From a virus (Duplodnaviria; Caudoviricetes): a stretch of DNA of 64,000 bases. The notes under the pieces were generated by a model. That model saw only the letters and a list, made by a program, of their open reading frames with translations. It was not told where the DNA came from and searched no databases. The stretch lies in the IMG/VR virus record IMGVR_UViG_3300021960_000017, one strand, 5' to 3'. How positions within the stretch are numbered: the first letter of the stretch is position 1; each line of letters starts with the position of its first letter. Of this stretch, positions 13,051-27,974 are shown in pieces. The translations under genes were made by a program, and so were the position numbers.

Positions 13051-14454
13051 ATGTATACTAGTGATTTATTTGAAAGTGTAGGGTTTCCAAATCGTAAACA
13101 AGGCGATGAGTTTTATAATCCAAAAGATGATAACGACACCGCTACTTTTATTGAACTAATTGCATACCCTGACGGTACAACAAAGTTTGAAACTCCTGAA
13201 TTAAGAGATCAAACTCTTAAGAGTTTTTCAGATCAAGTTAAGGGTAATGTTTTTATTTTAAATAAACCCACCGCTAGTTTATTAGGTCTTTACATTGTCC
13301 ATATGGTAGACAGTAAAGGACAAGATGATTATTATGTTAAGTATGTTCGTAGCACTGCTAACCTAGCAGGTATACTAACACAGATCCCAGTAAACATAAA
13401 AGCCCCTGGTCATGGTGGATACAGATTTGGCAGCAAGAGTGCTAGAAAAGAGGCATATGCTATAAAACCAAGTAATATTTTTACTAGTGAAGGTCCATAT
13501 GAACCTGCTCAAATTCCTGGTTATATTCAAGCAGCACAGGGCATGCCAGATGATCTTAAAGCACAAATGGTAGGTTATTTAAGTGCACTTGTTAAGGGTA
13601 ACAAAGACTTCTTGATGCAGGATGGCGACAAATATAGATCTGTACATGAAAATTATACAGGTGAATTTGCTGCTCCTATTGCTATTATTACAGCACAAGT
13701 AAATGAACAAGCAATCAGACAAAAGGCAGAACAAACACTATTGGGTGGCGAACGTTTTGCAAATTGTAAAATAGTCTTTCCACTAAGTGCTACAGAAAAG
13801 CTAGTAGATAGCAAACTGGTTGCTCCAAATGGCCGTACAGTTAGAGTGAGCAGTAAAGCTGAAAGTGGTGGTGGTGCTGCCGCTAGTATGGAAGGCTTAA
13901 TGGATACTATTAACCTAAAACGTAATGATCCCGATTTTAAGCCTGTTATAGATCAGTTTGGTCCTGAATTGCGTATGATGGAAACTGTTGTAAAAAACAA
14001 TGCAGTAGATGGCTTCCTAATACTTGCAAGAGAACAAAAACTTATAGACCAGCAGGACGAGCAAGCAATTAGGGCTGGTATTGCTAGAGCAAAAGAAGGC
14101 CAAAAGAGCACACTAGAGCAACTTACTAGTAGACTACAAAACTATGTAGGCAATTATGGTGCAGATACAGACAATCCAAGATACAATGTTGTGTATCATG
14201 CAACAGCAGCACTAAGCAGAGTACTAGGTGCTAAACTTGGTGAAATGAATGTAACTGGTGCCGTTAAAGCGATACTTAATTATAGTTCATTTGTACAAAT
14301 TTATGCAGGCACACAAAAACTAGGCAATGATATAAAAATGAATAGTTTTAAAATGGTGTGGCCTCCAGAGTATGATGGTACTGTATATATTGACACTGCT
14401 AAGAACTTTACTGGTACAGAGATACGCGGCAAAATAAGTTTCAAATTTAAATGA
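13051..14454 (+). CDS. hypothetical protein (late)
   Basis: 467 aa ORF after TAAATAAATA. Confidence 0.8.
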   Translation: MYTSDLFESVGFPNRKQGDEFYNPKDDNDTATFIELIAYPDGTTKFETPELRDQTLKSFSDQVKGNVFILNKPTASLLGLYIVHMVDSKGQDDYYVKYVRSTANLAGILTQIPVNIKAPGHGGYRFGSKSARKEAYAIKPSNIFTSEGPYEPAQIPGYIQAAQGMPDDLKAQMVGYLSALVKGNKDFLMQDGDKYRSVHENYTGEFAAPIAIITAQVNEQAIRQKAEQTLLGGERFANCKIVFPLSATEKLVDSKLVAPNGRTVRVSSKAESGGGAAASMEGLMDTINLKRNDPDFKPVIDQFGPELRMMETVVKNNAVDGFLILAREQKLIDQQDEQAIRAGIARAKEGQKSTLEQLTSRLQNYVGNYGADTDNPRYNVVYHATAALSRVLGAKLGEMNVTGAVKAILNYSSFVQIYAGTQKLGNDIKMNSFKMVWPPEYDGTVYIDTAKNFTGTEIRGKISFKFK

Positions 14455-14774
14455 TAGAATATGCACTAGCATTAAGTTTCCACCTTGGGCTTAAAAATGA
14501 TTACAATAGTGTACACCCACATATAAGATATACTGACAAAGGTTTTATTGCTGGCGTTTACTACAATTCAGAAGACAATATAAGTTTTTATGCTGGAAAA
14601 CGCTGGGAGCATGGAGGCGTTGGATTTGAGGCAGGTGCTGTAACAGGATATTCCGGAGCGCCAGTAGTTCCTTATGGTCGTGTAACATACAATAATTTTT
14701 TTGCAGCACCAGCAATAGAAAAAACTGACACAGTTAGAGTAGGCGTAGTTTTAGGTTACGAAATTAAATTTTAA
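14451..14774 (+). CDS. small beta-strand-rich protein, outer-membrane-like
   Basis: Alternating aromatic/Gly strands, C-terminal YEIKF. Confidence 0.55.
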   Translation: MIEYALALSFHLGLKNDYNSVHPHIRYTDKGFIAGVYYNSEDNISFYAGKRWEHGGVGFEAGAVTGYSGAPVVPYGRVTYNNFFAAPAIEKTDTVRVGVVLGYEIKF

Positions 14775-15623: not shown

Positions 15624-15653
15624 AAACCGCCACTGCAAAGTGGCGGTTTTTTT
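15624..15653 (+). terminator. intrinsic terminator
   Basis: AAACCGCCACT-GCAA-AGTGGCGGTTT plus T run. Confidence 0.9.
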
Positions 15654-15654
15654 A

Positions 15655-15662
15655 TATAAATA
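15655..15662 (+). promoter_or_regulatory. T4-like late promoter of the curli-like operon
   Basis: Exact TATAAATA 19 nt before the csgF ATG. Confidence 0.75.
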
Positions 15663-15681
15663 GCCTTGGAGGAGTACGGAT

Positions 15682-16128
15682 ATGAAAACTGTCATAGTTA
15701 CAGTTGTTTTCAGTTATGTACTGTTGACTCAGGCATTTGCAAGTGAGTTAAGGCAGACTTGGAAAAGCCCTGCATTTAGTGGACAAGGCTATAGCAGTCA
15801 TGTATTGACCATTGAAAATCTAACACATCAACGCAAAGCAGAAATTAAATCAAAAGAAGAAGCCGCAGCAAGAGAAGCGGAACGAGACGCTGAAAATACA
15901 AACATTAATAAGTTCCTAAGAAACTTTGAAAGCCGAGTATATGCTGAATTGAGTAAACAGTTAAGTGAAAAACTGTTTGGAGAAGCAGCACAAGACAGTG
16001 GCACAATTGATATTATGGGAAATACTATTGAGTATAGTAGTGATGGAACAGCCGTGACAATGATTGTTACTGATGCTGATGGAACCACTACTACTCTTGT
16101 AGTACCACTATCAGGATTTGGATTCTGA
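15682..16128 (+). CDS. csgF: curli assembly protein CsgF-like
   Basis: Signal peptide; KSPAFSGQGYSSHVLTIEN; FLRNFESRVYAELSKQL; adjacent to csgG. Confidence 0.85.
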   Translation: MKTVIVTVVFSYVLLTQAFASELRQTWKSPAFSGQGYSSHVLTIENLTHQRKAEIKSKEEAAAREAERDAENTNINKFLRNFESRVYAELSKQLSEKLFGEAAQDSGTIDIMGNTIEYSSDGTAVTMIVTDADGTTTTLVVPLSGFGF

Positions 16129-16970
16129 TGTTAAGACTTGCTGCAATATGTTTACTAGCCTTGGGCTTGAGTGGGTGTATGATGGGCCACGAAGTTGCAA
16201 AAACTATGGAGCCCAGTGTGGCAGTAACTCCAATGCAACCTGGATTAAGAGACTTTCCCAAAATATCCAATGGCAAGCCAGTAACAGTTGCAGTTTATAA
16301 TTTTCTTGATAAAACAGGACAACGCAAGCCTGCAGATAACATAGCAAACATTAGCACTGCTGTTACCCAGGGTGCAGAGATATATTTAATTAAAGCATTA
16401 GACGATATTGCTGACGGAAACTTCTTTGATGTAGTCGAACGCAACGGAATGGAATCACTTATAAAAGAACGACAAATTATTCGCCAGGCACGAGAAAAGT
16501 ATGATCCCAATAAAGACCTGGCACCATTAAAATTTGCAGGTGTTATTATTGAAGGTGGTATTGTTGGATACGATTCCAACAAACATACAGGCGGCGCCGG
16601 CGCAAGAATAATGGGCATCGGACCACAAACAGAGTGGCGTGTTGATATTGTTACGGTAGGTATTAGAGCAGTAAGCGTTTTAACAGGCGAAGTTATATTA
16701 GCAGTTAGTGCGGAGAAGACAATACTAAGTACCAACACCGCTATTAATGTATTCAGATTTTATGATTTAGGCACAAAAGTTTTAGAAATTGAAGCTGGCA
16801 CTAGTACAAATGAGCCAGTCAATTATGCGGTACGGCAAGCAATAGAGTTCGCCGTGGTGCAGATGGTAGAAGAGGGAAAGAGAAAAGGATACTGGAATTA
16901 TGATAGCACAAAAATTCCAGAAAAATTTATAAAGAAGGAGTCTACACTCGATTTAAGAGACGTCAAGTAA
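16128..16970 (+). CDS. csgG: curli secretion channel CsgG-like lipoprotein
   Basis: Lipobox LSGC; VAVYNFLDKTGQRK; STAVTQGA; FDVVERNG; EGGIVGYDSN; NEPVNYAVRQAIE. Confidence 0.93.
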   Translation: MLRLAAICLLALGLSGCMMGHEVAKTMEPSVAVTPMQPGLRDFPKISNGKPVTVAVYNFLDKTGQRKPADNIANISTAVTQGAEIYLIKALDDIADGNFFDVVERNGMESLIKERQIIRQAREKYDPNKDLAPLKFAGVIIEGGIVGYDSNKHTGGAGARIMGIGPQTEWRVDIVTVGIRAVSVLTGEVILAVSAEKTILSTNTAINVFRFYDLGTKVLEIEAGTSTNEPVNYAVRQAIEFAVVQMVEEGKRKGYWNYDSTKIPEKFIKKESTLDLRDVK

Positions 16971-16995
16971 CCGAGAGTACTTTAGGAGGATTACT

Positions 16996-17697
16996 ATGAG
17001 AGGCATAGTAGTAGGAGGAGCAATATTGCTATTAGCAATGTCCAGTAGGGCATTTGCTGATAACTTGATCTATATAGATCAAACAGGCAGTAGTGCAACC
17101 ATAAACATTAACCAGGACGGTACAGGTAACCGTGTTGGTGCAAGTGGCGATGACAGCGTAAGTGATGGTGCAACCACCACTATGGACATCGATCAAGTTG
17201 GTACAAGCAACGTCTTGGATTATGATATCTATGGCGACACAGCCAACATTACTTCCAATATAACTGGTAACTCATCAGACATTGATATTCAGGTTGGTAC
17301 CACAGGCGGTAGCAACGGTGGATCAGATGATGTTGACATTACAATTAATGCAAGCGGCGGTAACTCAAATACAGTTAGTGCAAATGTGGGCACATCCGCA
17401 AGTGGTGTTGATGATGTTGACATTGATGTTGATATTACTGGCGGAAGTAATAGTGTAACAATAACAGAAAACTCAACAGCAGCAAGTATTTCAGATAAAA
17501 TCACAGATGTAGATATTACTGGTAGTACAAACACTGTCACAGCAACAAAGAGCGGTGCTTCACAGCACGACACAACATTGAATATAACAGGCTCAAGTAA
17601 TACATTTAGTGTTACACAGTCTGGAGCAGAAGCGAGCACTGTAGATGTTACAACGAACGGGTCTAGTAGTAGCGTTACTATTACTGTTACAGATTAA
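16996..17697 (+). CDS. curlin-like secreted beta-solenoid protein (CsgA/B-like)
   Basis: Signal peptide; repeats IDQTGS, INQDGTGN, IDQVGTSN, ITGxSN. Confidence 0.8.
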   Translation: MRGIVVGGAILLLAMSSRAFADNLIYIDQTGSSATININQDGTGNRVGASGDDSVSDGATTTMDIDQVGTSNVLDYDIYGDTANITSNITGNSSDIDIQVGTTGGSNGGSDDVDITINASGGNSNTVSANVGTSASGVDDVDIDVDITGGSNSVTITENSTAASISDKITDVDITGSTNTVTATKSGASQHDTTLNITGSSNTFSVTQSGAEASTVDVTTNGSSSSVTITVTD

Positions 17698-18727
17698 TTT
17701 TGTAACAGAGTCACATGCAGCCGTAGGGCAAGTTGAACAGCAGTTGGGTACTGCTGAAGTGCTGCGATCTGGTGACAAAAAGACCAGCAGTGTTGGATTT
17801 GGCATAGAGATGATGGATGAAGTCAGATCCGGCAACGGTATTGTAGGTATAGGATTTGAAGATCAAACAAAAGTTCGTGTTGACAAACATTCAAAGTTAG
17901 TCATAGATGATTTTATCTATGACCCCAAGAAACCCAATGCAAGCAAACTAGGACTAAAGGTTGCGTTGGGCACTGTCCGATATGCCAGTGGACTTATTGC
18001 TAAACAGAATAGACAGTCTGTTAGCATCCGCACTCCCACCGCTTCCATTGGTGTAAGAGGAACGGCATTCAGTATGACTGTGGATGAGATAGGTCGTTCA
18101 TTAGTCATACTGTTGCCTAACCCGGACGGCACAGTAGGTGAAATTGCTGTTACAAGTGATGTAGGAACTGTCATAATGAATCAAGCATTCCAGGCTACAC
18201 TTGTTACTGCTACTGAAAAGCCACCTGCTAAACCAGTAATACTGGATCTATCAGAGGCAATGATTAATAACCTCCTAATTATCAATCGCCCTAAAAGAAT
18301 TGAAAAAGAATACTCAACAGATGAAGAAAGTAGCAATGTCCTAGATTTTAATGAACTGGACGTTGACTACCTAGCAGCAAATGAACTTGAAGAAGAGCAA
18401 TTAGAATTTACAAGACTGGACTTTAACTTGTTAGATGCTGATTTACTACAAAATATTCTGGACATTGTAAACAGACGATTAGCAAGTGCAGATCGTTTTC
18501 CAACCAATCCTATATTTTCAGGACAATACGAAGGTGGTAACACACAGATATTTGGCGGCGAGAATGAAGATTGGGAAATATACAGACAAGTTGATGGACG
18601 CATAGTTAGTATTAAAACGCCAAGCACACAGGATACTCAGATAATTTTAAATCAAGCAGGTAGTGCAGTTACATTACACACAACGGAGGATGCTAGTGAT
18701 TCGGTTATTACTATTACTCAAAATTAG
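17645..18727 (+). CDS. secreted FecR-domain protein
   Basis: Signal peptide; IRTPTASIGVRGTAF FecR signature; acidic linker. Confidence 0.88.
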   Translation: MLQRTGLVVALLLLLQINFVTESHAAVGQVEQQLGTAEVLRSGDKKTSSVGFGIEMMDEVRSGNGIVGIGFEDQTKVRVDKHSKLVIDDFIYDPKKPNASKLGLKVALGTVRYASGLIAKQNRQSVSIRTPTASIGVRGTAFSMTVDEIGRSLVILLPNPDGTVGEIAVTSDVGTVIMNQAFQATLVTATEKPPAKPVILDLSEAMINNLLIINRPKRIEKEYSTDEESSNVLDFNELDVDYLAANELEEEQLEFTRLDFNLLDADLLQNILDIVNRRLASADRFPTNPIFSGQYEGGNTQIFGGENEDWEIYRQVDGRIVSIKTPSTQDTQIILNQAGSAVTLHTTEDASDSVITITQN

Positions 18728-19490
18728 CATCCTAGTTTTTACTAGCGTTGCTCATGCTGACAATATTATTAATATTGAACAAGTTACGAGCGGCAACTCT
18801 AATAATATTACTGTTAGCATGGAAGGTAGTGGCAACAAAGTAGATTACAGCTTTGGCGGCGCTGGCAATACAGTAACCATAGACCAAAAAGGCGATGATG
18901 GTTATGTTGGGTATACAACAGCCTGGGGCAGTGGAGCACAGTGGGGCGGCGACTTGGACGGCGACAATAATAACTTGAATATAAAACAATTATGTAATCA
19001 ATCTCCATGTGGTGGAGATAGATTTGAATTTCATATCGCAGGCAATAGTAATGATGTTGATTTTTACCAGGGATATAGAGCATATAGTGATGGTACACTA
19101 GATACGGTGGATGATTATGAATATGGTGGCCACTTTGTGCAGTTAGACATCCACGGTTCCAACAATAAATTTTTAGGAAGTCAACGAGCAAATAATTCAG
19201 GTCACGAACATTCAAATACAACTGGCATATATGGTAATTACAATAACGTTTTTGCTGTACAGTGGGGCAATCAAGATAAGACAATAAACTTAACAATTAA
19301 CAATAGCAATAATGATGTAGATATTGTGCAAAAAGGCAGCGCACCTCATACTGCTACCATCAATTTAAGTGGTGACTATGGAACAACTCTAGACTTACTG
19401 CAACAAAGTGATACAACACAATCTTATTCTCTGAGCCAAAACTGTCTAACAGCAGGCGGTTGTAGCGTAAGCGTTACACAGGGTAACTAA
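18690..19490 (+). CDS. second curlin-like secreted protein
   Basis: Signal peptide; repeats IEQVTSGNSN, IDQKGDD, AVQWGNQD, IVQKGS, VTQGN. Confidence 0.8.
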   Translation: MLVIRLLLLLKISILVFTSVAHADNIINIEQVTSGNSNNITVSMEGSGNKVDYSFGGAGNTVTIDQKGDDGYVGYTTAWGSGAQWGGDLDGDNNNLNIKQLCNQSPCGGDRFEFHIAGNSNDVDFYQGYRAYSDGTLDTVDDYEYGGHFVQLDIHGSNNKFLGSQRANNSGHEHSNTTGIYGNYNNVFAVQWGNQDKTINLTINNSNNDVDIVQKGSAPHTATINLSGDYGTTLDLLQQSDTTQSYSLSQNCLTAGGCSVSVTQGN

Positions 19491-19607
19491 TAAATACTAC
19501 AGTTATACAGATAGATTCAATAGCAAATCAAGAATAATAGTTTGAATCAACACAAGTAAAATACATCGATAATATTATAACGCCCTTATTTTGTAGAGGA
19601 GAGAAAA

Positions 19608-21668
19608 ATGAGGCGTCTATTATTGACTAGCGTCAGTGTGGCTGCACTGATGTCAACAACAGCCATGGCTGGAACTGCTAGCCTACAAGCATCAGGCATG
19701 GGATTGCTTGAAAACGAATGGGTTAAAGCAGGTATAAACACAACAACAGGTACACTAGGTTCAGGAAACGGCACAAGTCCAGGATTATTGTTTGATCCAA
19801 CAGGAACTGGAACATTCAACCCTAGTTACGACTATCTAACCCCAGGATCACCATTTGATGGTTTTGCTGTGAAAGTAGATGGAACAAATTACTATAATAA
19901 CAACGCTGGAAACCAAGTTAACATAACAAAGTCCGGAGATGGAACAGGAGATAATGTTATCGCCTGGGACGGCAGTGTGTCCGGTGTTTTTGATTTGACA
20001 AATAACTATGTATTGTTAGCAGGAAACCCATACATTGATATTACCACAAGTATTACAATGAGCATTGCTGCTGACAGTGTAAGTTTTGCAAAATACATTG
20101 ATCCAGACAGTCAGGGTATGCCTGGCGACAGCTCAGCAACTGACAATGTGTTAGGTTATGGAGTTATTCCAAGTACTAATGTTGCGTTCTCAGAAGCAAC
20201 TGTAAGTCGTTACGCATTAGGTATCTATACAACAGATACAAACGTAACCGCAGGTGTAGAAAACTGGACACAAGAAGCTGATGGCTATAGTGGCACAAAC
20301 TATACAGACGCAGATGGTAATGCTTTAACCTACGGCACTAGTGACGACACCATTGGTATTAGTTGGACATGGACAGGCGTTAGTGCAGGTGACGTTTTAA
20401 CAGCAAGTTATGCTTACATCTTTGGTCCAAGTGCATTTGATGCAGCAGATGATGCTGTATCAGGCGGAGCAGGTGGTGGCGACACTACTGTTACAGATGG
20501 TTGGGGTACAGTTACAGACGTTGGTTCAGCAACTGATGCGGCAGAAAGTGGCGCAACAGGCGGTGATTCATCACCAACAGTTGTTAGCACAAGTACAGAA
20601 ACAATTACAAGCACAAGTGAAGCAACAAGTACTACACTTCCTGTTCTTACAGCAAGTTTAACACATCATGAAGCAAGTATTGCGGGTGGTGTACAAACAG
20701 TTGACAGAGAAAAAACTACAACTGTAACTACACCTGTAAATGTTACAACTACAAGTTTTGTACGAACAACAACAACATATAGTGATGGTAGTACAACTAC
20801 TTCAGATGGCGAAGCCACAAGTACAGTAGTAGTACGCAACGATGTTGTTTCAAGTTTAGAAATACTTCCTGACTTATCAGGACGTATTGATCAACAGCAA
20901 AAAATGGATGCAATTGGTGAAAGTATTAACCGTGGCATGCATGTAGATCCGTTTAAAGCAGGTGGTGCTAAAACTGAATGGGGTCAAATGTGGGCAATAG
21001 GCGGTTATGGCAAAACCAAATTGGATAACAGTTACGAAGCAGATACACAAAGTTTTGGCTTACAAATTGAATTCCAACCAATGGCAGAGTGGCGTATTAG
21101 TTTAGGTGTGGCAAAATCACACACTGATCTTTCTGGTACAGGTAGCTCAAGTGACTTGGATAAAATAAATGTTAACATTGGTAGCATTTATGATTTAGGT
21201 AGCATAATACTTGTTACAGATGCTGGTATTGCTAAAAATGAATATACAAATTCAAGAGACATTGATGTTTATTCAAATGCTAGCCAATCAGAAGGTACTG
21301 ACATGATACTTAAACAGCGTGTATACTACAAGTTGAGTGACAGCATTACTCCATTTGTTGGTGGTGCCGTTACAAGAACATCTAGAGATGCTTATGCAGA
21401 ATCTGGTTGGGTAGTAACTGCAAGAGAAGTTGGCAAGGTAGAAGAAACTACAGAATACGGTGAAGCAGGCGTTCGTTTACAACATAGCGTTGCAGGCTTT
21501 GATGTATTTGGACAGGGTAGTATTACTACAGACGAATATATGACTGCAAGTGCAGGCATTAGTTACGAAATTACAGAAAATGCTAGTGTAAGCATTACTG
21601 CTAATGGTAGCAAACAGGATGATATGAAATCCGTATCGGGTAACTTATCAGCAAACATTAAGTTTTAA
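19608..21668 (+). CDS. autotransporter-like outer-membrane protein
   Basis: Signal peptide, G/T/D-rich passenger, Thr-rich linker, ~250 aa beta-barrel ending ANIKF. Confidence 0.8.
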   Translation: MRRLLLTSVSVAALMSTTAMAGTASLQASGMGLLENEWVKAGINTTTGTLGSGNGTSPGLLFDPTGTGTFNPSYDYLTPGSPFDGFAVKVDGTNYYNNNAGNQVNITKSGDGTGDNVIAWDGSVSGVFDLTNNYVLLAGNPYIDITTSITMSIAADSVSFAKYIDPDSQGMPGDSSATDNVLGYGVIPSTNVAFSEATVSRYALGIYTTDTNVTAGVENWTQEADGYSGTNYTDADGNALTYGTSDDTIGISWTWTGVSAGDVLTASYAYIFGPSAFDAADDAVSGGAGGGDTTVTDGWGTVTDVGSATDAAESGATGGDSSPTVVSTSTETITSTSEATSTTLPVLTASLTHHEASIAGGVQTVDREKTTTVTTPVNVTTTSFVRTTTTYSDGSTTTSDGEATSTVVVRNDVVSSLEILPDLSGRIDQQQKMDAIGESINRGMHVDPFKAGGAKTEWGQMWAIGGYGKTKLDNSYEADTQSFGLQIEFQPMAEWRISLGVAKSHTDLSGTGSSSDLDKINVNIGSIYDLGSIILVTDAGIAKNEYTNSRDIDVYSNASQSEGTDMILKQRVYYKLSDSITPFVGGAVTRTSRDAYAESGWVVTAREVGKVEETTEYGEAGVRLQHSVAGFDVFGQGSITTDEYMTASAGISYEITENASVSITANGSKQDDMKSVSGNLSANIKF

Positions 21669-21674
21669 TGTACT

Positions 21675-21697
21675 GGGGGGCGTTAAGCCCCCCTTTT
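21675..21697 (+). terminator. intrinsic terminator
   Basis: GGGGGGC-GTTAA-GCCCCCC-TTTT. Confidence 0.85.
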
Positions 21698-21699
21698 AC

Positions 21700-21705
21700 T
21701 AAATA
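21700..21705 (+). promoter_or_regulatory. late promoter of the cyclase gene
   Basis: TAAATA 8 nt before ATG 21714. Confidence 0.55.
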
Positions 21706-21713
21706 GAGTTGCA

Positions 21714-23771
21714 ATGGGAAAACTTTTAACCAGCACTTGGATGGCTGTTGTAACTCTATTAATATTAGTCACCCTGCGTGTTTGGGACCCAGCTCCTGTA
21801 GAAACACTGCGACTAAAAGGCTTTGATTACTTACAAAGCCAAGAGCAAAAACAGCAAAGCAAAGACATTGTACTCTTAGACATAGGTGAACCTAGTCTGG
21901 ATGCGTTTGGTCAGTGGCCCTGGCCACGTGATTACTTTGCAAGCATAATGATGAAGTTGCGTGAAAATGGCGCACAACTTATAACATTTGTAGTGTTTTT
22001 CCCAGAAGCAGATCGTATGCAACAGGATCCTGCATTTGCAGATATACTGTCACAGGATCCCTATACAATACTAGCACAAACAGCAACTAACCGTGCGCTT
22101 AAAACACACGGCAAACACATTGCAGCAAACTGGATAGGTGATGATCCCACACCCTGGTTATACAACTGGCCCGGACTTGTTAAGAACATTGACCTATTAG
22201 AAAATGCTGCTAAAGGTGTTGGCATGGTTGCAGTAGCACCTGAAGTGGATAATCTTGTTAGACGACTACCCTTGGTGGTAAGGATTGCGGATCAAATATA
22301 TCCTAACCTTGCTATAGAGTTTATTCGTGTAGCAACCGGTGATCCTGGTTATCAGATTAAAACAGGTGAAAGTGGTATTCAGGCCGTAAGAGTGCCTGGA
22401 TATAATGTTGTTAAAACTGATCCTCATAGTAGAATGTGGATTGACTTTAACAAAACCTATGACAGAATTGAAGTGTCGGAGGAAGACTGGAGCAGGGTAA
22501 ATGGCAAGCATGTGTTCATTGGAACTACAGCAGCCGGACTTGCCAACTTCATTAGTACGCCAACGGGCCTTGTATATCCACATGAAATACAAGCGAGCCT
22601 GGTTCAAACAATCCTAGATGGAACCTTTATACAACGACAAGACTTTATGAACACACTGGAAGCAATAGCGTTTGCAGTGTTTGGCATAATACTCTTGTTG
22701 GTTGTTCCCCGTACAAGCGTCTTGCTCACAGTACCAGTATTGCTGTTATACCTGGGCGGCGTAGGGGGTTACAGTTATTATGAGTGGACAGATAGTAAAA
22801 ATCTTGTGGACGCAACCTTCCCAATGGCAGCGGGCTTTTTACTATTTGCTCATCTCATATACAATAACTTTGCAAGAGAATTCCGTCAGAAGATGGAAAT
22901 TAAAAAACAGTTTGCAGGTTATTGCTCACCCGAAGTTGTTAAAATACTTCAAACAAATCCGGACTTGATCAAGAAGGGTGTTAAAAAAGATGTTAGCGTT
23001 ATGTTTAGTGATTTGCGTGGATTTACTCCCATTGGCGAACATTATGGTGACGATGTACAAGGCTTAGGAGAATATATGAATGGGTATATGGACTCAATTA
23101 CCCGACCAATTCTGGAAAAAAATGGTATGGTTATTAAGTATGTTGGGGATGCTAGCATGCATATCCATGGCGCTCCTATCGACGATCCTAATCATGCTCA
23201 TACTTGTGTGGATGTTGGATTAAAGATGATAGATGCTGTACAAAAATACAGCGCAGAAAAGGTAGCACAAGGATTACCCAAAGCAGAGATGGGCTTTGGT
23301 ATTAACACTGGTGATGGCTTTATTGGCGAGATGGGATCAACTGCCAGACACAGTTATGACATTTTAGGCGATATGGTTAGCACCGCAGCACGTCTAGAAG
23401 CACGTTGTAAGGCATATGGTGTACTGTGTATTATTGGTGCAGAAACATACAAACGCACCAGTGACGACTTCTTTTACTTGTTCTTAGATAACCTACAGCC
23501 CAAAGGCAAAAGCACTCCAGACTTTATCTATACAGCTCTAGGTGGCGACAGTAGTGGTTGGACCAAACACAAGTCAGATCATATTGAAATGCACAAACTT
23601 TACAAAGCACAAAAGTTTGATGAAGCCATTGCGATGTGTAAAACGATGTATGGTAACTTTGATGGTAAGATGGACAAGTATTATGACATCTGGATAGAGC
23701 GTTGCGAACTAATGAAGACACAGGACTTGCCCAAGGATTGGAACGGCGCATTTGTTGCTACGGAGAAATAA
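21714..23771 (+). CDS. CHASE2-domain class III adenylate/guanylate cyclase
   Basis: GQWPWPR CHASE2 motif, three TMs, VMFSDLRGFT, KYVGDA, GFGINTG, YDILGDMVSTAARLE. Confidence 0.93.
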   Translation: MGKLLTSTWMAVVTLLILVTLRVWDPAPVETLRLKGFDYLQSQEQKQQSKDIVLLDIGEPSLDAFGQWPWPRDYFASIMMKLRENGAQLITFVVFFPEADRMQQDPAFADILSQDPYTILAQTATNRALKTHGKHIAANWIGDDPTPWLYNWPGLVKNIDLLENAAKGVGMVAVAPEVDNLVRRLPLVVRIADQIYPNLAIEFIRVATGDPGYQIKTGESGIQAVRVPGYNVVKTDPHSRMWIDFNKTYDRIEVSEEDWSRVNGKHVFIGTTAAGLANFISTPTGLVYPHEIQASLVQTILDGTFIQRQDFMNTLEAIAFAVFGIILLLVVPRTSVLLTVPVLLLYLGGVGGYSYYEWTDSKNLVDATFPMAAGFLLFAHLIYNNFAREFRQKMEIKKQFAGYCSPEVVKILQTNPDLIKKGVKKDVSVMFSDLRGFTPIGEHYGDDVQGLGEYMNGYMDSITRPILEKNGMVIKYVGDASMHIHGAPIDDPNHAHTCVDVGLKMIDAVQKYSAEKVAQGLPKAEMGFGINTGDGFIGEMGSTARHSYDILGDMVSTAARLEARCKAYGVLCIIGAETYKRTSDDFFYLFLDNLQPKGKSTPDFIYTALGGDSSGWTKHKSDHIEMHKLYKAQKFDEAIAMCKTMYGNFDGKMDKYYDIWIERCELMKTQDLPKDWNGAFVATEK

Positions 23772-24249
23772 TCCTAATAACTTTCTTATGCCAAACATAT
23801 TCAGGCCAGGGCACTATATTTGTATATTCAATCTGTGTTATATACCATGGTTTTACTAAGTTAAATCTATTATCCAATAGCAAATCGTTTACTCTGACTA
23901 TGGCATGATACATATTGTCTTTTGGACTAAAAACAGTATATAGTCTAGGTTTGTAGCCTTGCTCGTCAAGTAATGTATAGATTGTTACAGCAAAATCATC
24001 ACAATCACCATAAAACCTTCTGTTCTTTTTCACTCTATAACTATAGTCTATCCATAAATCTTCGCCAGGACGGTCACTTACATAACTAAAGTTTTTGTAA
24101 ACACGATCGAATATGTTATAAATTTCAACAGACCTGTCTTGCTGGCGTATAGCCTGATCTAGTATGCTGTTTATATTTTGAGCATAAACACCACTAGAAA
24201 TTAGCAGAGCAACAACTAGAGTGCTACACCAAACATATAGCCTAGCCAT
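23758..24249 (-). CDS. transglutaminase-like cysteine protease (BTLCP/LapG-like)
   Basis: Signal peptide; GDCDDFA (Cys), YHAIV (His), LLDN (Asp). Confidence 0.8.
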   Translation of the reverse strand: MARLYVWCSTLVVALLISSGVYAQNINSILDQAIRQQDRSVEIYNIFDRVYKNFSYVSDRPGEDLWIDYSYRVKKNRRFYGDCDDFAVTIYTLLDEQGYKPRLYTVFSPKDNMYHAIVRVNDLLLDNRFNLVKPWYITQIEYTNIVPWPEYVWHKKVIRIISP

Positions 24250-24351
24250 AAACCTAATGTGAATCCAGCCGCTAATGCAACAACCAGATCACTGCCTTTG
24301 TACTGATAGGGAAACTGTTCTTTCATTAGTTCCCGCATTCTTATTTCAGAG

Positions 24352-24663
24352 TCAGGTAACTTTTTTGTTTGACTTAGAAACTTCATCGACCTCTTCCTCC
24401 TTTACAGATATAAGTTTGTCCTCGCTTAATCTGTGCTTTTCTTGATACTCTAAAATCATGTTTAGTTTTTGATTTAAGCGTATAAGGTCATTGTCTAACA
24501 TTCTTATACGATCAATAAGTGCAATTAGCGTAGTGTTTGCTTCGCCAATTACAGGCTTTACTGTTTTGGTGCTCCATTGCCAAACGTAAAATACAAAGTA
24601 ACCTAATCCTACTGCCGCTACAATAGGAAATCCAAAATCTTTAATTAGTTGTGCTATGTCCAT
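24352..24663 (-). CDS. small single-TM protein with coiled coil (YvrJ/holin-like)
   Basis: FGFPIVAAVGLGYFVFYVW; IRMLDNDLIRL. Confidence 0.7.
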   Translation of the reverse strand: MDIAQLIKDFGFPIVAAVGLGYFVFYVWQWSTKTVKPVIGEANTTLIALIDRIRMLDNDLIRLNQKLNMILEYQEKHRLSEDKLISVKEEEVDEVSKSNKKVT

Positions 24664-24865
24664 CCCACTGTCCTTTAATAAACCATTTTGTTAATTTGTC
24701 CATCTTAACAAGTTTGCCGGTTTCGTTGACTACAAAAATGTCGCCAACTTCAAATAACTTTTTATCCAGTAATTCAGTAGGCCAGTTTGTATCAGGCACT
24801 ACAGTTAAATCACCATTTGGATCCTGTTGTATAGTGTAATCTATCCATGATTTAAGACCACTCAT
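24641..24865 (-). CDS. hypothetical protein
   Basis: 74 aa ORF coupled to both neighbours. Confidence 0.65.
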   Translation of the reverse strand: MSGLKSWIDYTIQQDPNGDLTVVPDTNWPTELLDKKLFEVGDIFVVNETGKLVKMDKLTKWFIKGQWDGHSTTN

Positions 24866-25143
24866 TAATCTCTCCTTGCATCTTTTTTGCCATCTGCTCT
24901 GGCAATACGGTCCATATCAGGACGCACTCCGAAAGCATTGCTCATCAAAGTGTCGATGCGTATGACATCATGGTTCATAGTTTGCACACGGTTGTCCAGT
25001 GCAGTAATGATACCTTTCATACCATTAATGCTACCTTCAACTGAGTTCAAAATAAATTTTACTGATAAAAAAACAAAATAGCCCGCTGCACATGCCGCGG
25101 CGATGGGGAAGCCCACCTCGGCTATCAGACCAAAGATCTCCAT
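24865..25143 (-). CDS. small single-TM protein, paralog of 24352-24663
   Basis: VGFPIAAACAAGYFVF; RVQTMNHDVIRI. Confidence 0.7.
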   Translation of the reverse strand: MEIFGLIAEVGFPIAAACAAGYFVFLSVKFILNSVEGSINGMKGIITALDNRVQTMNHDVIRIDTLMSNAFGVRPDMDRIARADGKKDARRD

Positions 25144-25200
25144 CTTTGCACTCCTCGATTCACATCCTAGGATGTATACTTACTCTCCAGAAGTATTTAG

Positions 25201-25554
25201 TTAAAGGAGTACTATTATAGAATAATATGTGATGTAGTGACAAAGTTGATCAATGCTAGTAAGCCATAGCCAAACTTTTCCATACTTTACATACGGGCTT
25301 CGTTTTACTAGTGTGCTTTTAACGAAGTCAATGTGCCAGTGCGCCAACCAGTCTATTATACCAGCGAGTAAGGCAGTAACAGGGCCAACAAACATAAGTG
25401 CTACGAAAAAGGTAGCAATGCCATGCAACCCGTAATGATACTGGGCAAGTTTACTATAATAGTTTGCTTTGTTTAGGGGGCCTTGCATACCTTGTATGCC
25501 AATGTCCACTATAGCATGCTTGACTAGCAATGCTAAGAAAAAGGTTAATTCCAT
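25201..25554 (-). CDS. DUF3307-like membrane protein
   Basis: KHAIVD..Q, HGLHG, HWHIDFVK, IDQLCH histidine motifs. Confidence 0.75.
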   Translation of the reverse strand: MELTFFLALLVKHAIVDIGIQGMQGPLNKANYYSKLAQYHYGLHGIATFFVALMFVGPVTALLAGIIDWLAHWHIDFVKSTLVKRSPYVKYGKVWLWLTSIDQLCHYITYYSIIVLL

Positions 25555-25594
25555 AGAATTATTTATAGACTAAATATTATAAACAAGTTAATAT

Positions 25595-25954
25595 ATGAAT
25601 ATGCAAATAATACTCGGAAAAGAAATCGCAGATCAAGTTGGCGACAAATATATTGTCCTTGAACTTGACACATTCAAACACGACAGTGAACTTAAAACTG
25701 CCTATGCAGTACTTGATGCTGGTGCTATTCCTCTTGGGGAAATGCAAGAGATACCTAAATGGGTAGAGCATCATAATAAGATTATAGAAAACTACCGTAA
25801 ACAAAACTGGAGTTTTTGTGAGCAAATGATTGAACACTGCCAGAACCGCTGGGGTGGCGAATTGAATAGTTTTTACACAGATCTCTATGTTAGAATACAA
25901 GACTTAAAAAATAAAGAGTTATCAGATTCCTGGGATGGAACACTACAAAGATAG
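25595..25954 (+). CDS. standalone homolog of the cyclase C-terminal region
   Basis: Aligns by eye to the last ~115 aa of 21714-23771. Confidence 0.7.
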   Translation: MNMQIILGKEIADQVGDKYIVLELDTFKHDSELKTAYAVLDAGAIPLGEMQEIPKWVEHHNKIIENYRKQNWSFCEQMIEHCQNRWGGELNSFYTDLYVRIQDLKNKELSDSWDGTLQR

Positions 25955-27506: not shown

Positions 27507-27582
27507 GATTCCGTAGCTCAGAGGATAGAGCATCCGCCTTCTAAGCGGATGGTCGCAGGTTCGAATCCTGCCGGGATCGCCA
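27507..27582 (+). tRNA. tRNA-Arg(TCT)
   Basis: GATTCCG/CGGGATC acceptor, TCCGC-CT TCT AA-GCGGA, GGTTCGAATCC, CCA. Confidence 0.97.
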
Positions 27583-27596
27583 TTTGGAGTAACTCG

Positions 27597-27974
27597 ATGA
27601 CGATGCATCTTGTAGGTCCTTATTTGACCACAACCAACTTCAGGCCTCGCAAGGCCAAGAACAAAAGCAAGGCACAACTTGCTACAGATGCAGCTCATGC
27701 AAAGTTTCTCAAGAAGATGGGTTATAAGGGGAATGGTGTCAGTGGTAGCACAGTAGTCTCCAAAACTAACAGCGAGGGTTCGATTCCTTCTTCCTCTGCC
27801 ATCCCTAGCATAGGTGATGGTGTCGGTTATAATCCAGGTATGTCTCGGCGTAAAGAAAATGTCTATAGTGGCGAGCGCAAACTGTTAGGCGTTGCCACTA
27901 TGCATAAATCCAATATGGTGCCAGTATTTTCCAGTGAAGATGCTGAAGCAATATCCAAGATGAGACGTGGATGA
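27597..27974 (+). CDS. basic hypothetical phage protein containing an in-frame tRNA-Trp
   Basis: TGGAG RBS; MHLVGPYL N-terminus and MHKSNMVPVFS..AEAISKMRR C-terminus. Confidence 0.75.
   Translation: MTMHLVGPYLTTTNFRPRKAKNKSKAQLATDAAHAKFLKKMGYKGNGVSGSTVVSKTNSEGSIPSSSAIPSIGDGVGYNPGMSRRKENVYSGERKLLGVATMHKSNMVPVFSSEDAEAISKMRRG
27727..27801 (+). tRNA. tRNA-Trp(CCA), nested inside CDS 27597-27974
   Basis: AGGGGAA/TTCCTCT acceptor, GTGT/GCAC D arm with GG, TAGT-CT CCA AA-ACTA, GAGGG-TTCGATT-CCTTC, G discriminator, CCA. Confidence 0.85.

Follow-up and report, generated by a model that had tools for sequence, protein, structure and literature searches.

A putative extended curli secretion module in a marine T4-like phage

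Positions 15,655 to 25,954 of the viral record IMGVR_UViG_3300021960_000017, whose 64,000 nucleotides are called the window throughout, probably hold the version that a marine T4-like phage has of the viral curli (type VIII secretion) module of the pelagiphages, in an extended form that belongs to one sub-clade of the CsgG tree. The core genes run in the order csgF, csgG, curlin-like 1, a secreted FecR-domain protein and curlin-like 2, followed by an autotransporter and a CHASE2 adenylate cyclase, and the stretch thereby shows the published order of the viral module (CsgF, CsgG, CsgA/B, FecR, optionally a second CsgA/B, cyclase, accompanied by one or two small genes). A curli operon in phages was first reported by Zaragoza-Solas et al. 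2020 (PMC7029224). Wittmers et al. 2022 (PMC9599517) documented the complete set, 'HK(s), CsgF, CsgG, CsgA/B, FecR, CsgA/B, AC' (HK, histidine kinase; AC, adenylate cyclase), in podophages and myophages, reported the absence of CsgE and an alphaproteobacterial affinity, put forward aggregation, exclusion and import as hypotheses, and gave metatranscriptome expression of the module, CHASE2 included, in their supplement. An earlier note on this DNA, made by a model from the letters, had offered the coupling of curli genes with FecR and a cyclase as a new point; this was overstated, because the full set and its expression are already published (PMC9599517; also PMC7029224 and PMC9004378).

The core module and its relatives

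The signals and genes of the main unit, the cyclase and a stand-alone relative of the cyclase tail are as follows.

15624..15649, plus strand: intrinsic terminator hairpin closing the upstream unit (11-bp stem, then a T run)
15655..15662, plus strand: T4-type late promoter octamer TATAAATA, directly after that terminator and 19 nt 5' of the csgF ATG
15682..16128, plus strand: csgF, secreted CsgF homologue (Pfam CsgF 3.8e-14, full-length; 44-47% identical to the HTVC008M and Melnitz CsgF)
16128..16970, plus strand: csgG, outer-membrane lipoprotein pore (Pfam CsgG 1.6e-48; lipobox LSGC at residues 14-17; 46% identical to HTVC008M)
16996..17697, plus strand: curlin-like repeat protein 1 (signal peptide; first repeat Q-x-G-x-x-N; predicted strand-turn-strand repeat stack)
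17645..18727, plus strand: secreted FecR-domain protein (Pfam FecR 4.1e-8; 47-49% identical to the HTVC008M and Melnitz homologues)
18663..19490, plus strand: curlin-like repeat protein 2, paralogue of curlin-like 1 that ends in a conserved Cys...GGC-x-V-x-V-T-Q; translation probably begins a few codons 3' of the GTG
19608..21668, plus strand: type Va autotransporter, 686 residues (last 286: Pfam Autotransporter 1.6e-12, 48.2 bits against a cutoff of 26)
21675..21693, plus strand: strong intrinsic terminator ending the csgF-to-autotransporter unit (7 G-C pairs, then a T run; the strongest in the region)
21714..23771, plus strand: CHASE2 class III adenylate cyclase of the 'long' subfamily (Pfam CHASE2 4.7e-39, Guanylate_cyc 5.6e-18; 65-residue C-terminal tail)
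25595..25954, plus strand: o119, 119 residues, stand-alone homologue of the long-cyclase C-terminal tail

The gene identifications made in the earlier note were borne out almost gene for gene by Pfam, NCBIfam and AlphaFold 2 (AF2) models searched with Foldseek, the curlin signal being weak and sub-threshold. The closest viral relatives of the module are those of Pelagibacter phage HTVC008M, Methylophilales phage Melnitz and the HTVC023P-type podophages. By tblastn, CsgG is 46% identical to that of HTVC008M and 41% to that of Melnitz, and the records of these two phages annotate csgF, csgG, curlin, FecR/hypothetical, curlin and adenylate cyclase in an order identical to that of the window, CsgE being lacking in this module and in theirs alike. 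Identities to the two phages are 41-49% for CsgF, CsgG and FecR, 39-47% for the cyclase and 31-35% for the two curlin-like proteins. The small membrane genes are also shared, but they lie upstream in HTVC008M and Melnitz, whereas in the window the pair lies downstream on the opposite strand. The window further differs in that its csg operon is closed by the type Va autotransporter, in the addition of a BTLCP protease, a DUF3307 protein and the cyclase-tail paralogue, and in the larger genome of its phage (228.5 kb; the autotransporter lies on a 228,546-bp contig), the structural proteins of which are closest to Synechococcus phage S-T4 (41%). With the 10.4-kb stretch as query, megablast gave no match in 50,697 phage records. 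A search of sequencing runs placed the phage in marine and estuary metagenomes from 12 studies, in DNA runs only, with zero RNA runs.

As in bacterial curli systems (the E. coli csgBAC/csgDEFG genes and the alphaproteobacterial csgFG-curlin loci), there is a CsgG lipoprotein pore, a CsgF and secreted proteins with Q-x-G-x-x-N repeats, but the module of the window is without CsgE, CsgC and CsgD. The lipobox cysteine, Cys17, is nearly invariant in the alignment of viral CsgG proteins. At residues 70-80 or thereabouts most of these read N-I-A-x-F-S-T-A-V, a stretch that we take to match the pore constriction of the E. coli protein, and the phage of the window and its close relatives have Ile in place of the Phe.

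The two curlin-like proteins are paralogues (BLASTP 6e-9). Curlin-like 1 matched NCBIfam CsgA at 7e-7 and CsgB at 1.6e-3, and curlin-like 2 matched CsgB at 0.022, all under the curated cutoffs; the Pfam Curlin_rpt values were 0.04 and 2.5, respectively. Across 16 viral homologues of curlin-like 1, residues N23, Q29, G31, Q40, G42 and N45 are invariant and form the first-repeat pattern Q-x-G...Q-x-G-x-x-N, and the AF2 model (pLDDT, the predicted local distance difference test score, 78.6) is a stack of 18 short strands. Hidden Markov models of the viral curlins match curlin-like open reading frames (ORFs) beside alphaproteobacterial csgFG genes. All curlin-like 2 proteins end in Cys...G-G-C-x-V-x-V-T-Q, in which the cysteines are likely to form a disulfide; we know of no such ending in classical CsgA or CsgB. 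A conserved terminal strand of the form h-x-h-x-Q is common to the FecR protein and both curlin-like proteins, which may point to a recognition or docking element that the three have in common; in a profile comparison by hhalign, the C-terminal domain of FecR scored a probability of 18-21% against the curlin alignments, which is not significant.

Across the whole window the octamer TATAAATA is not enriched (8 observed against 8.9 expected). Of 25 related loci, 17 nevertheless carry the exact octamer just 5' of the gene that opens the module, even though protein identity in many of them is only 40-50%, and this conservation supports a working T4-type late promoter at the site before csgF where the earlier note had placed one; the module is thus presumably expressed late. 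The same note had given the cyclase a TAAATA of its own. The terminator at 21675-21693 closes the preceding unit after the autotransporter, which leaves the cyclase in a unit of its own; the motif itself, which sits after this terminator, is only a partial one.

Conservation was followed over about 30 viral loci (L numbers below), comprising 23 from IMG/VR retrieved through CsgG, six contexts retrieved through autotransporter homologues, and phage-derived contigs of metagenome-assembled genomes (MAGs). CsgF, CsgG, curlin-like 1, FecR, curlin-like 2, the cyclase and both small membrane proteins occur in nearly every locus whose contig extends far enough. Departures from this concern curlin-like 2, missing in L012, L027 and L031 and a short ORF in L026, and the small membrane proteins sm92 and sm103, not found in L031. 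The synteny analysis that the earlier note had proposed as a check thus gave a divided answer: these core genes are co-conserved, the autotransporter and o119 belong to one sub-clade, and the protease and the DUF3307 protein fall outside the conserved set.

On the CsgG tree the viral sequences group in a single clade (100/100) that divides into two sub-clades; its sister group is made up of the chromosomal CsgG proteins sampled, which are mostly alphaproteobacterial. Scanning species-representative genomes with the viral CsgG alignment as query yielded 80 loci. The chromosomal csgFG loci among them, about 65 and again mostly alphaproteobacterial, have curlin-like ORFs but no FecR, cyclase, small membrane pair or autotransporter, with one exception: a Henriciella MAG (L045:6466-12489, on a 397-kb contig) in which csgF, csgG, a 504-residue curlin, FecR and a long-type CHASE2 cyclase lie amid ordinary metabolic genes. 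A search of 150 other genomes of the family at E<=1e-20 did not recover this FecR, and the accompanying CsgG sits on a long branch within the viral clade. The bacterial locus seems to stand alone and may have come from a phage; the pattern is consistent with such a transfer but does not establish its direction.

The FecR-domain protein, the cyclase and the autotransporter

The FecR-domain protein consists of a signal peptide, the FecR domain, an acidic linker and a small C-terminal domain ending in I-x-I-x-Q. Unlike a FecR-type anti-sigma factor, it starts with a signal peptide and has the FecR domain alone, with no cytoplasmic anti-sigma part, and a scan of the module ORFs showed neither an extracytoplasmic-function (ECF) sigma factor nor a TonB-dependent transducer. 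Bacterial precedents exist for a secreted FecR-domain gene beside an inner-membrane CHASE2 sensor enzyme: in Sinorhizobium meliloti the FecR-domain protein SMc02177 is paired with CHASE2 cyclases (CyaD1 among them; PMC5498481), and in Burkholderia a LysM-FecR protein is paired with a CHASE2 kinase (PMC5192318). The pair in the window differs from these in being embedded in a virus secretion operon. In addition, the S. meliloti CHASE2 cyclases need an outer-membrane beta-barrel, NsrA, upstream of them (PMC7529298). Co-folding of FecR (residues 26-360) with CHASE2 (residues 25-320) gave a score of 0.00, which counts neither for nor against a contact.

In the cyclase the CHASE2 match covers residues 14-325, and hydrophobic segments were read from the sequence at about 7-24 and 320-390; the CHASE2 domain would thus be extracytoplasmic, between an N-terminal helix and a transmembrane block, as in CHASE2 sensors. 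The nearest solved structures are 6fht and CyaB (3r5g). When the motifs FSDLRGF, KYVGDA and YDILGD are aligned to these two, both metal-binding Asp residues and the ATP-selecting Lys/Asp pair are present; the transition-state Asn is replaced by Ser (VSTAAR) and the Arg is kept, so that only the Arg of the Asn-Arg pair remains. The viral cyclases fall into two forms, both of which keep the two metal-binding Asp residues and the Arg. The long form (about 680-690 residues, with a C-terminal tail), found in the window, Melnitz and others, has the Lys/Asp pair and the Asn-to-Ser change in every member, whereas the short form (about 615-629 residues, without the tail), found in HTVC008M and others, has Lys/Ser or Thr and the canonical Asn.

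The protein o119 matches the long-form tail only, that is, the last 65 residues of the cyclase. Plain BLASTP of o119 against the cyclase tail found no similarity, and hhalign gave a probability of 96.7% (E 4.6e-10), in agreement with the stand-alone tail paralogue that had been read from the sequence at the outset. Homologues of o119 adjoin the module in four loci (L003, L006, L026 and L031); there was no match to it in cultured phages.

The AF2 model of the autotransporter (pLDDT 81) comprises a signal peptide, a beta-sandwich passenger (residues 23-273, approximately), a Thr/Ser-rich beta stalk, a linker helix (429-442) and a 12-strand barrel (459-684) with a terminal Phe. The barrel superposes on the translocators of NalP, EstA, Hbp, BrkA and EspP (Foldseek NalP 4.3e-12, template-modelling (TM) score normalized to the target 0.79). 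The protein thus has the signal peptide, passenger, linker helix, 12-strand barrel and terminal Phe of type Va autotransporters such as NalP, EstA, Hbp and EspP, but the passenger is a beta-sandwich where the usual one is a beta-helix, it has no recognisable enzyme domain, and the gene is virus-encoded, inside a curli operon. The passenger fold recurs in surface proteins anchored by PEP-CTERM, the type IX secretion system (T9SS) or CHU_C. A fused curlin was considered for the passenger and rejected, there being no similarity to curlin-like 2.

The autotransporter occurs in two of the 23 IMG/VR loci and is absent from the close relative L006, from HTVC008M and from Melnitz. A first impression of a recent insertion is countered by its more than 1,568 full-length metagenomic homologues and by its recurrent position. 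In all six contexts sampled, which include contigs of 203 kb and 330 kb, the gene (44-55% identity) lies directly after FecR or curlin-like 2, a small o107-like gene intervening in two; the sample is biased in that these contexts were chosen through the autotransporter itself. The cyclase is found further downstream in five of the six, often past variable cargo, and the sixth has none within 10 kb. All autotransporter loci share one CsgG sub-clade with the window, HTVC008M and Melnitz, and at least 4-5 gains or losses are required on the tree. Judged by gene order and phylogeny, the autotransporter is a recurrent operon member in one CsgG sub-clade, repeatedly lost and hence dispensable: it belongs to the operon in one large sub-clade, from which both cultured model phages would have lost it. 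The literature searched holds no mention of an autotransporter in a viral curli module. In L026-L031 the gap between the autotransporter (or curlin-like 2) and the cyclase is a hot spot of insertion, with cargo that includes UDP-glucose dehydrogenase, glycosyltransferases, fatty-acid desaturases, ketoacyl synthase and a lipase.

The convergent unit and other travelling genes

On the opposite strand, facing the cyclase, lies a second unit; these features and one gene upstream of the module are listed here.

23758..24249, minus strand: secreted BTLCP-family (transglutaminase-like) cysteine protease (Pfam Peptidase_C93 5.9e-7, 29.8 bits against a cutoff of 27)
24352..24663, minus strand: sm103, small single-pass membrane protein of 103 residues, core member, paralogue of sm92 (2e-13)
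24641..24865, minus strand: o74, 74 residues, between the membrane paralogues (100% amino acid and about 96% nucleotide identity to L026:14584-14784)
24865..25143, minus strand: sm92, small single-pass membrane protein of 92 residues, core member, paralogue of sm103 (2e-13)
25201..25554, minus strand: DUF3307 membrane protein (Pfam 9.4e-7), found only in L003, L006 and L009
25560..25567, minus strand: second exact TATAAATA, preceding the DUF3307-to-protease unit
14451..14774, plus strand: o107, 107 residues ending ...EIKF, with no signal peptide and no Pfam match

The two small membrane proteins had been called paralogous in the earlier note, and comparison of the two sequences confirms it (2e-13). 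Their genes lie either directly 5' of csgF or downstream on the opposite strand, as in the window. Among the 50,697 phage records sm92 was found in Melnitz and HTVC008M only, both of which bear curli genes; it has 301 representative relatives, and among the matches listed all are of 48-154 residues. Their position and number make sm92 and sm103 the most likely counterparts of the published 'HK' genes. Neither gave a Pfam or NCBIfam match to a kinase domain (HisKA, HATPase), even at E 5 or 1; if they are indeed the 'HK' genes, the histidine-kinase label is unsupported. The intervening o74 matches L026 with sharp borders, all differences being synonymous, and the neighbouring genes are 56-61% identical, a pattern that suggests the recent exchange of a single tiny gene.

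The protease gene overlaps the cyclase stop. Its triad C82/H114/D125 is intact and invariant in four homologues and, with the signal peptide and the Pfam Peptidase_C93 match, is what it shares with the periplasmic proteases of the LapG/BTLCP type, from which it differs in lying barely over the family cutoff; no solved relative was found by sequence, and there was no sequence match to the solved LapG. The module ORFs scanned yielded no LapD-like partner, and no LapA-like substrate was identified, the motifs of such substrates not having been searched systematically. Beyond the window, L003, L006 and one metagenomic cluster (P0123) were the only places in which the protease turned up, and there it is 46-47% identical and its neighbours are 85-93% identical; tblastn gave no match in the 50,697 phage records, and only two word-sharing relatives were seen. 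The earlier note had made this protease part of a signalling circuit, a role that its distribution does not sustain: the protease and the DUF3307 protein are not conserved circuit parts, because they are restricted to the clade of the window (the latter being found in L009 also).

The o107 structure taken from the Atlas reaches a TM score of 0.69 to PagP clusters and resembles part of the PagP barrel; it is possible, as a lead only, that o107 is a small PagP-like outer-membrane beta-barrel. In other phages homologues of o107 lie inside the module, in the interval from curlin-like 2 to the cyclase (L007 and L008), in that from the autotransporter to the cyclase (L027) or in that from curlin-like 2 to the autotransporter (L028 and L030). 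The window also has nine tRNA genes. Beyond the module, ARAGORN places a tRNA-Trp(CCA) at 27727-27801, wholly inside an ORF at 27549-27974 and just after a tRNA-Arg at 27507-27582, and this ORF may be spurious.

Proposed function and its alternatives

The explanation to which we incline, and which we hold to be somewhat more probable than its negation, is that the stretch is the known viral curli module, expressed late and in an extended form, and that it works as follows. The T4-type late promoter would drive csgF through to the autotransporter, up to the strong terminator, with the cyclase as a unit of its own and the small membrane pair on the opposite strand behind the second late promoter. 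Late in infection the phage would install a CsgG/CsgF pore in the outer membrane of the host, through which curlin-repeat subunits would be exported, and the beta-sandwich passenger of the autotransporter would be displayed, so that a host without curli genes might gain a new surface, leading to aggregation, adhesion or the exclusion of other phages. The FecR-domain protein and CHASE2 would form a periplasmic sensing pair that sets the cAMP output, as is thought for the bacterial FecR/CHASE2 pairs, and the BTLCP protease and DUF3307 protein would be accessory cargo of the phage's own clade rather than core parts.

Several points weigh against this explanation. The curlin assignment depends on sub-threshold sequence matches, and a Foldseek search with the curlin-like 1 model against the PDB and Swiss-Prot models returned weak matches of the beta-solenoid type and no CsgA. 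Neither CsgE nor CsgC was detected by Pfam among the module ORFs scanned. The activity or product of the long-subfamily cyclases is uncertain because the transition-state Asn is Ser, and the contact between FecR and CHASE2 is argued from analogy. Fibre formation, moreover, is a prediction from the genes, and cultures of Melnitz showed no clumping (PMC9004378).

The unclumped cultures suit a different proposal, made by the authors who described them (Buchholz et al. 2022, PMC9004378), that the module is a pore for lysis timing: an ungated CsgG/CsgF would serve as an outer-membrane channel or a secretin- or pinholin-like device, the small proteins would be of the holin/antiholin type and the cyclase would supply the timing signal. 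It is favoured by the late promoter before the module, by the lack of CsgE among the ORFs scanned and by the two small membrane proteins that accompany the module throughout. However, two curlin-repeat genes are under selection in nearly all loci, CsgF is retained and an autotransporter has been added to the same operon, and a mere channel needs none of these; lysis genes, in addition, were not seen beside the module in the window. We regard this proposal as unlikely, if still deserving some weight. The missing CsgE is also accommodated by an import channel, a hypothesis put forward in PMC9599517, in which an ungated CsgG admits cofactors, siderophores or other solutes to the periplasm, and the FecR-like protein and the cyclase report their availability. 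The FecR domain is indeed known from iron-citrate signalling, but the protein in the window has a signal peptide and no cytoplasmic anti-sigma part, the module ORFs scanned include no detectable ECF sigma factor or TonB-dependent transducer, and the curlin repeats and CsgF are left unexplained; the chance that import is the function appears to us slight.

The remaining alternatives enlarge the sensing side of the module. Every part of a full trans-envelope circuit is present in the window, and in such a circuit the autotransporter, the FecR relay, the CHASE2 cyclase and a LapG-like protease would sense fibre assembly or contact and release or remodel the surface structure. The overlap of the protease gene with the cyclase stop, the intact Cys-His-Asp triad and the requirement for the NsrA outer-membrane barrel upstream of the S. 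meliloti CHASE2 cyclases (PMC7529298) speak for it. Against this, the protease is confined to the closest relatives of the window (46-47% identity, against 85-93% for its neighbours) and is absent elsewhere and from cultured phages, the autotransporter is often absent, with variable cargo often between it and the cyclase, and the LapD-like partner was not detected among the module ORFs scanned; we consider the full circuit very improbable. A narrower arrangement, in which the autotransporter passenger or barrel, the FecR protein and the CHASE2 cyclase make up a relay, encoded by the virus, that runs from the outer to the inner membrane in the autotransporter sub-clade, with o119 tuning the cyclase, has a parallel in the action of NsrA on the S. 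meliloti cyclases and is put forward on that analogy as a speculative and rather improbable proposal. If it were true, infected cells would respond to a signal from outside, for instance cell contact, debris of lysed neighbours or a superinfecting phage, and pass it through cAMP to late functions, among them the timing of lysis.

Curli genes in phages are among the most widespread auxiliary modules of ocean viromes. To the published account of the viral curli module, the window and its relatives add the recurrent autotransporter, the small membrane pair, the cyclase subfamilies with their tail paralogue, the conserved promoter and the finding that the combination is all but missing from bacteria. 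The autotransporter, the non-kinase small pair and the cyclase subfamily with its altered catalytic residue and detachable tail correct the parts list and narrow the experiments, and they leave the published basic picture unchanged.

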